DNA from: Synergistaceae bacterium
GTDB taxonomy: Bacteria; Synergistota; Synergistia; Synergistales; Aminobacteriaceae
Assembly: GCA_031272145.1 (NCBI GenBank)
Contig: JAISUL010000005.1
Location: 7,098 to 71,097 of the forward strand
DNA length: 64,000 nucleotides
Direction: 5' to 3'
Shown here: in pieces, positions 27,433 through 50,374 of the stretch
How the letters are laid out: every line of letters starts with the position of its first letter
Numbering within the stretch: the stretch's first letter is position 1
The notes under the pieces: model-generated
What the model was told of the DNA's origin: nothing
The model's input: only the letters and a program-made list of their open reading frames with translations
The model's database searches: none
Translations under genes and position numbers: made by a program

Positions 27433-27497
27433 GTCCGCGAAAACCTCCTGGAATCTATTGACAAAGATTATACAACCAACCTGTTCACAAAAACCAC

Positions 27498-27576
27498 TTA
27501 TCCACAAAAACCGTTCGACGACGCGAATTCACGAGTTTCGCCGCGACATATCCACAATTTTATCCACTTGTCCACA
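27498..27576 (+). promoter_or_regulatory. cluster of four co-oriented DnaA-box-like 9-mers
   Basis: TTATCCACA (27498-27506, perfect consensus), ATATCCACA (27548-27556), TTATCCACT (27560-27568) and TTGTCCACA (27568-27576). A weaker CTGTTCACA lies at 27481-27489. Confidence 0.55.
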
Positions 27577-27593
27577 GAACGTCGAGGCCGAAG

Positions 27594-27622
27594 TTGACAA
27601 AAAACGGCGGCCGTGCTATACA
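27594..27622 (+). promoter_or_regulatory. sigma70-like promoter
   Basis: TTGACA (27594-27599), 17-nt spacer, TATACA (27617-27622). Lies immediately downstream of the DnaA boxes and upstream of the gene at 27672. Confidence 0.5.
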
Positions 27623-27671
27623 TGGGGCGGCTGAGTCGCAAGCGATGCCATCGGATAGGAGGCGGGCAAAT

Positions 27672-28091
27672 ATGGACGAGCAAGAGGAGAAGCTGTACAA
27701 CGAGAAGCTGGGGCGCACCGAAGACCGGCTGTCGGCGAAGATCAATGCCCTGGACTCTGAGGTAAAAGCCCTGGCGCAGCAAATGAACGAAATGAAGCAC
27801 GACATGCGGGAGCTGCTCGCGTCATATCGGCATGTTTTTTGGGCACTTGTAGCCCTTGCTGTCACCATTGCATTCAGCGCATGGGGCATCTCTAGATACG
27901 ACGAGGATCGGATCGTAGCCCGTGTTCTCGACGCCTTGAACCGCCAGAGCGCTCTGATCGAGAGGGCAGACGGAGCGTCCGCGAGGGTGGTGCCCGCTCC
28001 AACTGCCACAGCTGCGCCTGCGCAGCCCGCGGAGAATGCCAGCGCAGATGTCGCCGGCGTCCCACCATCGCCGCGGACGCGGCGGCAATAG
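27672..28091 (+). CDS. coiled-coil single-pass membrane protein
   Basis: ATG 27672 follows an AGGAGG SD. Coiled-coil N-terminus, one TM (VFWALVALAVTIAFSAWGI) and an Ala/Pro-rich tail. Confidence 0.5.
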   Translation: MDEQEEKLYNEKLGRTEDRLSAKINALDSEVKALAQQMNEMKHDMRELLASYRHVFWALVALAVTIAFSAWGISRYDEDRIVARVLDALNRQSALIERADGASARVVPAPTATAAPAQPAENASADVAGVPPSPRTRRQ

Positions 28092-28122
28092 GCTAAATAA
28101 CTCATAGGAGGCCGGAGCTTTC

Positions 28123-29436
28123 ATGCCTAGAATAGAGGGCTTCAGGGTGAAAAACTTCAGGGCGCTGAAGGACTTAACCCTTGGCCGGCTTTGGAACGGA
28201 GAGGGAGGAGTCAATAAAGCGCTTACGCCGGTCACCGCCGTCATCGGCAAGAACGGCACGGGCAAAAGCACCCTGTTCGACGCGTTCGGCTTCCTGGCGG
28301 ACTGCATGCGGGCAGGCGTGGAGGAGGCCTGCGACATGCGAGGGCGCGGCGGCTTCTCGCGCCTCAGGACGCAGGGCGTGGACGGCAGCATCGAATTCGA
28401 GGTCTACTACCGTGAGAAACCAAGTGACCGCCCCATCACCTACGAGCTTTCGATCGCCCTCGACTCCACTGGCCGCCCTTACGTGCAAAGAGAGCGGCTT
28501 AGGCAGCGCCGACATGGGCAGCAAAGAGGGCGTCCGTACTCGTTCCTAATTTTGGAGAACGGCGAGGGCGTGGCGTGGAAAGGAGAACAGGACGGATTAG
28601 ATGACAACGGCAAGATCGATCTGACGAGCCTTATAAGAGGGGCTAGCAATGAGGATATTGCCGAGTCAAACGTTCGCGAGCGCGTCGAGCTTGACGACAA
28701 CAGGAGGCTTGGAATAGCAGCCTTGGGCGTCTTGAGGCAGCACCCAAGGATAGCTGCCTTTCGTAAATTTATCGAGGGCTGGTATCTGTCCTATTTCACG
28801 CCAGACGCCGCCCGCAGCTTGCCTCTCGCCGGGCCGCAAAGACATCTGAACGTCCACGGCGACAACCTTGGGAACGTCGTCCAGTTCATGGAGCGCGAGC
28901 ATCCGACGGAGTTCAGGCGCATACTTGCCGACATCTCCAAAAAAATCCCAGGGCTTGAGAAGATAGCCACCGAATCCACGCCGGATGGACGCCTGCTTTT
29001 GAAGTTCAACGACTGCGGCTTTCAAGACCCGTTCTACGTGCAGCAGATGTCGGACGGAACGCTCAAGGTGTTCGCGTACCTTCTGCTGCTAGCCGATCCC
29101 ACGCCGCCGCCGCTTCTGTGCATAGAGGAGCCGGAAAACGGGCTGTATCACAAGCTGCTGACGGTACTGGCTCAGGAGTTTCGCGACTACGTCGGCAAGG
29201 GCAAGGCGGCTTCGCAGGTATTCGTAACGACCCATCAGCCGTATTTCGTCGACGCCCTTTCGCCGGAGGAGGTATGGGTGCTGGAAAAAGGCGCCGACGG
29301 CTTGGCGCACGTTAAACGCGCCGACAGCGACCCGACCGTAGCGACCCGACCGTCAAGGCACTGGCCGAGGAGGGGCTGCCGCTGGGCGGGCTTTGGTATA
29401 GCGACTATCTGGAGGGGAAATAAGAATGCACTTTGA
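28123..29436 (+). CDS. ABC/OLD-like AAA family ATPase; C-terminus frameshifted by a 14-bp tandem duplication
   Basis: Walker A GKNGTGKSTLFDA, signature-like MSDGT, Walker B LLCIEEPENGLY, and TTHQP. The last ~28 aa of the track ORF are Arg/Trp-rich junk. Removing one copy of the duplication restores ...DSDPTVKALAEEGLPLGGLWYSDYLEGK with a stop at 29421. Confidence 0.78.
   Translation: MPRIEGFRVKNFRALKDLTLGRLWNGEGGVNKALTPVTAVIGKNGTGKSTLFDAFGFLADCMRAGVEEACDMRGRGGFSRLRTQGVDGSIEFEVYYREKPSDRPITYELSIALDSTGRPYVQRERLRQRRHGQQRGRPYSFLILENGEGVAWKGEQDGLDDNGKIDLTSLIRGASNEDIAESNVRERVELDDNRRLGIAALGVLRQHPRIAAFRKFIEGWYLSYFTPDAARSLPLAGPQRHLNVHGDNLGNVVQFMEREHPTEFRRILADISKKIPGLEKIATESTPDGRLLLKFNDCGFQDPFYVQQMSDGTLKVFAYLLLLADPTPPPLLCIEEPENGLYHKLLTVLAQEFRDYVGKGKAASQVFVTTHQPYFVDALSPEEVWVLEKGADGLAHVKRADSDPTVATRPSRHWPRRGCRWAGFGIATIWRGNKNAL
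29326..29353. repeat. perfect 2 x 14-bp tandem duplication (AGCGACCCGACCGT) causing a frameshift
   Basis: 29326-29339 equals 29340-29353. Read directly from the sequence. Confidence 0.95.
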
Positions 29437-29740
29437 ATTTCTCGTCGAGGATCGTTCGTCTAAGACGGCGATCGATATTCTTTTCCATAAGATAGTCGGA
29501 GAAGAGCATACCCATAGGATACACCCGTACAGCGGTACGTGGGAACTCCTGGCCGAGGCCATATATGAAGGTGGCTATAAGGCTATTGTAAAGCAAAACG
29601 TTGGCGCTGAAAAATCCAAATGGGCGGCCAGCATATGCCCTAAGATGAACGTAAACGACAACAAATCGCCCAGTTTTAACTTCTTATGCGTGACCCTGCG
29701 GGAGTTGGCTGACTCAAAATCAGCGGCAAGTAGATTATAA
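29426..29740 (+). CDS. DUF4276-like protein, apparently internally deleted
   Basis: 104 aa. The N-terminus MHFEFLVEDRSSKTAIDILFHKIVG and the C-terminus GTWELLAEAI...NKSPSFNFL...L match my recollection of the two ends of DUF4276 proteins. Those proteins are usually about twice as long. The family call is from memory and not verified. Confidence 0.5.
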   Translation: MHFEFLVEDRSSKTAIDILFHKIVGEEHTHRIHPYSGTWELLAEAIYEGGYKAIVKQNVGAEKSKWAASICPKMNVNDNKSPSFNFLCVTLRELADSKSAASRL

Positions 29741-29743
29741 AAC

Positions 29744-29763
29744 GGGGAGGCTTGCGCCTCCCC
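29744..29763. terminator. GC-rich hairpin between convergent genes
   Basis: GGGGAGGC-TTGC-GCCTCCCC followed by TTCTCTC. Lies between the DUF4276-like gene (+) and the esterase gene (-). Confidence 0.5.
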
Positions 29764-49166: not shown

Positions 49167-50345
49167 ATGCTAAAAAACTTTGGCGTTCTTAAGACGCCGG
49201 AGGCCAGGGTCGCGCTCATCTCTCTGGCGCACGGCATCAACGATATGTACGCGGCGTTCCTGTCCACGTTCCTCCCGTTCATCAAGGAGAACCTCGGCCT
49301 GTCGTACTCGCTTGCCGGGAGTTTCAACGTCATAGTCGGATTCTTCCATATAATAGGCCAGCCGGTCATAGGCTACCTCAGCGACCGCATGAGGCGCCCC
49401 ATCCTTATGATGCTTGGGCCTATTTTCTGCGGCGTGGGGGCGATAATGCTGCCCAACACTCGGTCGTACTGGCCGACCATCTTCTTCGCCGGGATGTGGG
49501 GCCTAGGCAGCGCCCTCTACCACCCCCAGGGCAACGGCGGCATAGGCTACGTTGCCCGCCCCGAAAAACTCACCGGCGCCCTCACATGGTTCAACATCGG
49601 CGGGATGCTCGGCGGGATGCTGAGCCCGCTGGTGGCCGTCGGAGTCGTGCATTTTTGGGGCTACAAAGGGCTCTTCGTGACGCTCATACCGGCCGTCATG
49701 CTGAGCGCGCTCATATTCTTCTCGATGCCGCTCCTGAGGCAGGACGTCGGCACCCACCGCGCCGGCCTCGTCAGGACTCTGGGCAGCTTGTTCAAATCCC
49801 TCTACCCCCTGTGGGTGGTCGCCGCGACGCGCGACCTGCTGTTCCAGTGCGTGCGCTTCTTCCTCCCGATGAAGATAGTCGCGGAGGGAGGCGACCTTGC
49901 CGCGGTCGGCTTGGTCGTGTTCCTGACGACGTTCGGCGGGACGGTGTCGATGCCGTTCGCGGTCGCGGCGGCGCGGCGGATAGGGGACTCGCGCACGATC
50001 TTCCGCAGCCTCCTGCTGGGCTTTATGGTGATGACGGCCGGGGGATTCGTGTCCGGCTGGTGGGTTGTGCTGTTCTACATCACGGGGCTTTCGTGCGTCT
50101 ACTCCACTCTGTCGATAACGAGCGCGATGGCGCAGCGCCTGATGCCCGACGAGCGCAGCGCCGGAAGCTCGATAGTGACCGGCCTGGCGTGGGGCGTGAG
50201 CAACATCCTCATACTCCCGTTCGGCGGCCTGGCCGACCTGGTGGGGATAGACATGTCGCTGGTTATCACGAGCATGCTGCCGCTGATTCCACTGCCGTTC
50301 TTCTTCATGAAGATGCGGGCGCTGCAGGACACGCGGAGGCCGTAG
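49167..50345 (+). CDS. MFS transporter
   Basis: 392 aa with ~12 TM helices and the MFS loop motif GYLSDRMRRP. Confidence 0.85.
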   Translation: MLKNFGVLKTPEARVALISLAHGINDMYAAFLSTFLPFIKENLGLSYSLAGSFNVIVGFFHIIGQPVIGYLSDRMRRPILMMLGPIFCGVGAIMLPNTRSYWPTIFFAGMWGLGSALYHPQGNGGIGYVARPEKLTGALTWFNIGGMLGGMLSPLVAVGVVHFWGYKGLFVTLIPAVMLSALIFFSMPLLRQDVGTHRAGLVRTLGSLFKSLYPLWVVAATRDLLFQCVRFFLPMKIVAEGGDLAAVGLVVFLTTFGGTVSMPFAVAAARRIGDSRTIFRSLLLGFMVMTAGGFVSGWWVVLFYITGLSCVYSTLSITSAMAQRLMPDERSAGSSIVTGLAWGVSNILILPFGGLADLVGIDMSLVITSMLPLIPLPFFFMKMRALQDTRRP

Positions 50346-50346
50346 G

Positions 50347-50374
50347 AGGCGCTCGATCAAAGGCGCTCGATCAA
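50347..50374. repeat. perfect 2 x 14-bp tandem duplication (AGGCGCTCGATCAA)
   Basis: 50347-50360 equals 50361-50374. Intergenic, 1 nt after the MFS stop. Confidence 0.95.

Follow-up and report, generated by a model that had tools for sequence, protein, structure and literature searches.

What is the two-gene locus at positions 28123-29740 of this window (the whole 64,000-nucleotide stretch of DNA analysed, from a Synergistales genome), and could it still act as a defence system? A sequence-only reading had proposed an ATPase gene and a small partner gene, both damaged. We consider it very probable that the locus is a copy of HEC-01, a candidate anti-phage module of two genes, that it was acquired horizontally and that it was inactivated twice, by a deletion of the partner's core and by a duplication that shifted the frame of the ATPase. 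The features of the first gene are as follows.

28106..28111, plus strand: Shine-Dalgarno-like AGGAGG, 11 nt upstream of the ATPase ATG (read directly)
28123..29436, plus strand: HEC-01A ABC-type (AAA_21) ATPase open reading frame as it stands, 437 aa (PADLOC, Pfam, alignment)
29326..29353, plus strand: perfect tandem duplication, 2 x AGCGACCCGACCGT (repeat family D6, 100% identity)
29354..29423, plus strand: stranded native 3' end of the ATPase gene, KALAEEGLPLGGLWYSDYLEGK + TAA, out of frame (alignment)

The first gene encodes an ABC-type ATPase, as had been proposed. It matched the PADLOC model HEC-01A (PDLC04182, E 3.4e-177, 587 bits, profile positions 1-382 of 406) and Pfam AAA_21 (E 1.2e-39), and AAA_15 was also matched. 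An alignment with relatives matched its Walker A motif (GKNGTGKS), its signature (QMSDGT), its Walker B motif (LLCIEEPE) and its H-loop (TTHQP) to theirs. Identity to relatives of 426-433 aa was 69-72%. Its relatives number in the thousands, and the best 120 were 66-72% identical and almost all 426-433 aa long. The full-length layout is an ATPase of 426-433 aa and a partner of 213-224 aa, 3-7 nt apart. At three loci with gene calls, the ATPase had 429-430 aa and was followed after 3-4 nt by a DUF4276 protein of 219-224 aa. The hosts of the best relatives include cyanobacteria, Desulfobacterota, Pseudomonadota, Planctomycetota and a Methanolobus archaeon, and this breadth suggests wide horizontal spread.

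In the window, the reading frame of the ATPase is broken near its end. Direct reading and a repeat search both showed two perfect adjacent copies of the 14-mer AGCGACCCGACCGT, at 29326-29339 and 29340-29353 (...GCCGAC AGCGACCCGACCGT AGCGACCCGACCGT CAAGG...). All coordinates that the sequence-only reading had given, those of this repeat included, were correct. The duplication adds 14 nt and shifts the frame after residue 406; residues 1-406 of the 437-aa product are native, and the last 31, an Arg/Trp-rich tail ending ...DSDPTVATRPSRHWPRRGCRWAGFGIATIWRGNKNAL, are out of frame. When one copy of the 14-mer was read, the ATPase regained the near-invariant family C-terminus GLPLGGLWYSDYL. The one-copy product ends ...DSDPTVKALAEEGLPLGGLWYSDYLEGK, with its TAA at 29421-29423, 2 nt ahead of the partner ATG at 29426. 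Its KALAEEGLPLGGLWYSDYLEGK aligned with GLPLGGLWYSDYLDAR of the relatives, whose ATPases all end GLPLGGLWYSDYLD(A/K)R, in agreement with the one-copy reading. The match to PDLC04182 rose from 587 to 624 bits and extended to profile positions 1-401 of 406. The alignment and the score bear out the earlier claim that a single copy restores the C-terminus and brings the stop to just before the partner gene.

Relatives encode the AGCGACCCGACCGT segment without any repeat (alignment). Because a perfect adjacent 14-mer repeat is expected by chance only ~2e-4 times in 64 kb (64000 x 4^-14), the duplication is real and not random. Direct reading showed CGAC/CGACC repeats in the 14-mer unit and its left flank, which form a slippage substrate. 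The duplication most likely arose by replication slippage in this CGAC-rich stretch, and it swapped the conserved last 22 residues of the ATPase for 31 unrelated ones. The window ATPase was alone in its cluster, on a single contig. Metagenome contigs scanned for the exact pattern, with one or two 14-mer copies allowed, gave no match, and the nearest ATPase relative in the collections was 72% identical. Because no relative exceeded 72% identity and the metagenome scan was empty, we infer the ancestral intact allele rather than observe it.

The second gene and its surroundings contain the following features.

29426..29740, plus strand: HEC-01B / DUF4276-family remnant, 104 aa (PADLOC PDLC04205 and alignments)
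29528..29536, plus strand: in-frame deletion junction TAC AGC GGT (Y-S-G) (codon comparison, four full-length relatives)
29744..29763, unstranded: G+C-rich terminator-like hairpin located between the partner and the esterase gene convergent with it; the stem has 8 pairs (7 G-C), and the minus strand shows a T-run (consensus match only)

The 104-aa partner matched PADLOC HEC-01B (PDLC04205, E 4.4e-27) as two separate segments. When the genome was searched in six frames, profile positions 1-39 and 152-211 of 213 fell next to each other within a single open frame. With only these positions covered, the protein fails a full-length HEC-01B match; an intact relative matched the model over positions 1-211 with 317 bits. 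Pfam DUF4276 (PF14103, gathering threshold 30.2 bits) did not match the 104-aa protein even at E 0.1, and an NCBIfam search with it returned nothing. The full-length 213-aa partner of a same-family genome, G006, scored 45.8 bits against Pfam DUF4276 over profile positions 1-191 of 192. Because the full-length relative scores and the 104-aa protein does not, we regard the gene as a remnant of a DUF4276 member and not as a scoring member. The earlier assignment to DUF4276 thus held through the HEC-01B matches and the alignments with DUF4276-scoring relatives, which override the absent Pfam match, and not through a Pfam match of its own. That reading had also allowed that DUF4276 members of ~100 aa may be normal. 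This did not hold, since a search of 57-182-aa proteins in 5.8 billion sequences returned only the window's own protein and no look-alike.

To its 213-224-aa relatives the 104-aa partner aligned at its two ends only. Residues 1-35 are kept, and the protein then jumps to GTWE at about residue 156. This is an in-frame loss of ~115 residues that includes the invariant DxD and ExE acidic motifs, as had been anticipated for a half-length partner without its middle acidic residues. E8, C87, D88, L89, D90, E121, E122 and E124 were invariant in 36 aligned full-length partners; among E8, D88, D90, E121, E122 and E124, the window partner keeps E8 only, and the others fall in the deleted segment. Toprim proteins are recognised by a conserved Glu following strand 1 and a DxD following strand 3; in the window partner the DxD is deleted. 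At the junction, the left-hand sequence in relatives is TAC AA(A/G) GGx and the right-hand one TG(C/T) GGx ACx TGG. The junction Ser codon looks like a chimera, which we infer to join the first base of a Lys codon (A.., after HPY) to the last two of a Cys codon (.GC, before GTWE).

An AF2 model of the full-length partner (pLDDT 80.8) showed strand 1 (2-7), a helix (10-23), strand 2 (30-35), strand 3 (81-87), a helix (94-106), strand 4 (116-120) and a helical C-terminal domain (157-218), in this order. In the model, D88/D90 lie directly after strand 3 and E121-E124 directly after strand 4. Mapped on it, the window partner retains the first two strands, the helix between them and the helical C-terminal domain; half the central sheet is missing, as is most of the acidic centre. 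When the full-length model was compared with the PDB in Foldseek, the best E was 0.026, which is not significant, and the 50 chains listed included no Toprim protein. Neither the partner profile nor the ATPase matched any PDB sequence. Because Foldseek returned no Toprim, we base the nuclease fold of the partner on its motifs and on the literature (PMC12065111, PMC13662399 and 10.1101/2024.01.29.577857). The first of these counts DUF4276 as a Toprim superfamily member whose Glu and DxD are conserved.

We also observed an excess of substitutions in both genes. Over the first 405 residues of the ATPase, which the frameshift leaves untouched, the window protein was deviant at 9 of 219 columns conserved at ≥97%; in 117 other ATPases the same columns gave a median of 1 deviation and a maximum of 6. 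The second-highest count (6) belongs to the other Synergistales ATPase, and lineage could account for part of the excess substitutions. The partner remnant was deviant at 4 of 31 columns conserved at ≥97% (maximum among others, 2), and the changes at invariant positions in its retained parts include G12S and P21H. The excess at conserved positions in both remnants fits relaxed constraint for some time.

The G+C content of the module was 57.0%, compared to 61.9% for the window (11th percentile of same-sized windows), and that of the partner gene was 46.7%. The earlier impression that the region is less GC-rich than its flanks is therefore real but modest. GC3 was 0.74 in the ATPase and 0.54 in the partner; of five neighbouring host genes measured, four lay at 0.79-0.90. 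The neighbours are housekeeping genes (dprA, acpS, an FTCD_C cyclodeaminase, an esterase, a class-III aminotransferase and a TRAP transporter), and the module lies between a lineage-specific 165-aa open reading frame and the esterase gene. The module is foreign in composition and was very probably acquired horizontally. We found no convincing flanking repeats or mobile-element ends between 27000 and 30600. No homologues of the upstream 165-aa frame were found in 40 related genomes, so that no empty site is demonstrable.

The 165-aa frame itself (27594-28091, plus strand), directly upstream of the module, had no Pfam match and a GC3 of 0.68, below that of host genes. Its own genome contains five paralogous pieces of it (contigs C57, C59 and C83), three of them with internal stops. 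Just upstream of it, positions 27496-27577 carry three co-oriented 12-mer copies with a TTATCCACA-like (DnaA-box-like) core.

[quoted passage not shown] In E. coli K-12 it gave no protection against BASEL phages (10.1101/2024.01.29.577857), and in E. coli B one cold-seep HEC-01 representative was protective against one or more of T4, T5 and T7 (PMC12881386). Anti-phage activity of HEC-01 itself is uncertain. Both window genes match the HEC-01A and HEC-01B models best, and their order and spacing are those of intact relatives. The locus differs in that both genes are damaged and that it is not embedded in an Hma system. The sequence-only reading had spoken of split OLD-family, PARIS or AbiL-type logic; the pairing of an ATPase with a Toprim-like partner was upheld, but the precise name is PADLOC HEC-01, not PARIS or AbiL.

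Three known systems resemble the module. MAD3-MAD4, of the methylation-associated defence system (MADS) of Pseudomonas aeruginosa, also combines an ABC-type ATPase with a separate DUF4276/Toprim-like nuclease. The window ATPase matched the mad3 model (PADLOC E 4e-22), but NCBIfam NF047739 gave 90.5 bits, far below the equivalog cut-off of 420, and neither a methyltransferase nor other MADS genes lie near the module. The relationship is distant. The Mg-binding pocket of MAD4 consists of D12, D55, D81, E83, E119 and E121 (PMC13662399); the acidic motifs of the HEC-01B family parallel D12, D81/E83 and E119/E121 by order, not by structure-based alignment. PARIS (AriA/AriB) and other OLD-like ATPase/Toprim systems share an AAA_15/AAA_21 ATPase with a Toprim-superfamily effector, and the tree of AAA15/21 defence ATPases in the PARIS paper includes DUF4276 among the partner domains (PMC11464382). 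However, the AriA models gave 124 and 64 bits on the window ATPase compared to 587 for HEC-01A, and the window partner is DUF4276, not DUF4435, with no AriB match. Scores and partner type rule out membership of MADS or PARIS. Menshen NsnC has a Toprim-like effector domain (a C-terminal DUF4276 domain) with a conserved Glu and DxD (PMC12065111), but Menshen has three genes, and its ATPase, NsnB, is a different one; an NsnB match was seen for a relative only, and it was weak.

MAD3-MAD4 forms a 2:2 heterotetramer that has ATPase and DNA-cleavage activities only in complex; MAD3 alone has no detectable ATPase activity, and MAD4 alone is insoluble (PMC13662399). By analogy, an intact HEC-01 pair is probably an assembly-dependent ATPase-nuclease. 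The in-frame deletion of ~115 codons took the third and fourth core strands of the partner together with DxD and ExE, and with these motifs lost its metal-binding nuclease centre should no longer form. On the same analogy, a partner without its core and an ATPase without its tail should both be inactive. The partner was probably lost first, and the ATPase would have drifted afterwards.

Damage to the partner is not confined to the window. We surveyed 80 one-per-species loci picked for a good ATPase match, a sample biased toward intact ATPases. The partner was uninterrupted at 68 loci and cut off by a contig end at 2. The damaged partners were as follows.

2 loci (L024, L038): partner frameshift
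1 locus (L040): partner nonsense codon
4 loci (L047, L069, L078, L097): partner deletion or truncation
3 cyanobacterial loci (L074, L089, L094): partner replaced after HPYKG by a GIY-YIG open reading frame

A damaged partner thus stood beside a full-length ATPase at 10 of 78 assessable loci (13%). Two same-family genomes carry deletions of their own. G022 (Synergistales bacterium PG1894_187; L069, 3001-4435, plus strand) has an intact 424-aa HEC-01A followed by a 51-aa in-frame partner stub that joins the N-terminal 10 residues to HEC-01B positions 177-211, a larger core deletion than that in the window. G018 (L004, 1480-2259, minus strand) has a 259-aa in-frame fusion of HEC-01A positions 1-158 and HEC-01B positions 116-210, with one deletion across the ATPase end and the partner start; another AAA ATPase gene adjoins it. 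In G006, also of the same family, the partner is intact. The 10 of 78 loci and the deletions in same-family genomes show loss of the nuclease core to be a frequent fate of HEC-01. A wider proposal would be that the Toprim partner is repeatedly and preferentially lost while the ATPase is kept, reflecting self-damage as a recurring cost of the nuclease, and perhaps a nuclease-independent role of the ATPase or the stubs, with the window at a late stage; we hold this to be unlikely.

At the three loci with a replaced partner (Microcoleus and a Sericytochromatia MAG), the partner gene, which lies just past the ATPase stop, ceases to match after HPYKG (residue 37), and the GIY-YIG assignment of the replacing frame rests on a Pfam score of 27.1 bits. 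This HPYKG break coincides with the left edge of the deletion in the window partner.

Instead, the 14-bp duplication might be an artefact of assembly or polishing, or the consensus might have fixed a minority variant; in either case the ATPase would be intact and only the partner damaged. The genome is a 107-contig draft with a shortest contig of 2.6 kb, which fits a metagenome bin, and a full-length ATPase beside a broken partner is common in other species. However, the 28-bp tract is shorter than typical assembler words, so that the path presumably exists in the reads. Genome-wide, we counted 106 perfect tandem duplications with a unit of 10-40 nt; most had unit lengths divisible by 3 or were palindromic intergenic elements of 17-18 nt. 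No more than two or three others looked frame-breaking, and this survey gave no sign of a systematic assembly problem. The excess substitutions of the ATPase at conserved sites are, moreover, independent of the duplication. We therefore judge an artefact distinctly improbable.

Some of the other repeats deserve mention in their own right. Removing one copy of a perfect 11-nt tandem duplication at C105:19520 would lengthen an open frame from 309 to 376 aa, and removing one copy of a perfect 10-nt duplication at C4:12445 would lengthen another from ~141 to ~186 aa; both may be further slippage frameshifts. The window holds a second perfect 14-bp tandem duplication, AGGCGCTCGATCAA x2, at 50347-50374. 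It starts one base past the stop of the open reading frame at 49167-50345, and is intergenic and apparently harmless. Palindromic units of 17-18 nt (GGGGTCTCAGACCCC-like) form perfect tandem pairs on many contigs (e.g. C38:25263, C43:12693 and C82:3521), and these pairs are apparently intergenic and REP-like.

A selected function for the short partner would be a further explanation: a nuclease-dead adaptor that keeps the ATPase-contacting ends, the pair having taken on a new non-nuclease role. The deletion is in frame, and the partner frame is open with its own ATG. The 51-aa stub and the ATPase-partner fusion are in-frame deletions at two other Synergistales loci, and the contacts of MAD4 to MAD3 include residues near both protein ends (PMC13662399). 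However, the three deletions differ in their end points and do not define a conserved short family, and three of three in frame has a chance probability of ~1 in 27 before correction for looking. Invariant positions are changed in the retained parts (G12S, P21H and others), the ATPase of the same locus is itself frameshifted, and lesions elsewhere include frameshifts, a nonsense codon and replacements. We consider such an adaptor very improbable.

Two 14-mer copies are a poor slippage tract compared to known contingency loci. We give almost no credence to a reversible slippage switch (phase variation) that would turn the module on and off by 14-mer copy number: the repeat is perfect, local CGAC-rich sequence favours slippage and the genome holds other perfect recent tandem duplications, but relatives carry no repeat in the AGCGACCCGACCGT segment, and the ~115-codon partner deletion is irreversible, so that restoring the ATPase frame with one copy would not revive the system; on this ground we reject phase variation. 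We read the module as dead and not as a slippage switch; of the earlier alternatives, decaying or varying by slippage, the first stood and the second fell, since the partner deletion cannot revert.

Taken as a doubly inactivated HEC-01 module, the locus matters for annotation: defence finders that score HMM matches could call it a HEC-01 system when it is actually a double pseudogene. The survey provides a usable but small base rate, with ~13% of sampled loci carrying a damaged nuclease partner beside a full-length ATPase. The case is an ordinary one within a known candidate defence family. It offers a clean example of module death, by in-frame deletion of the nuclease core and a probable slippage duplication in the ATPase, and an example of what would be nuclease-first decay.
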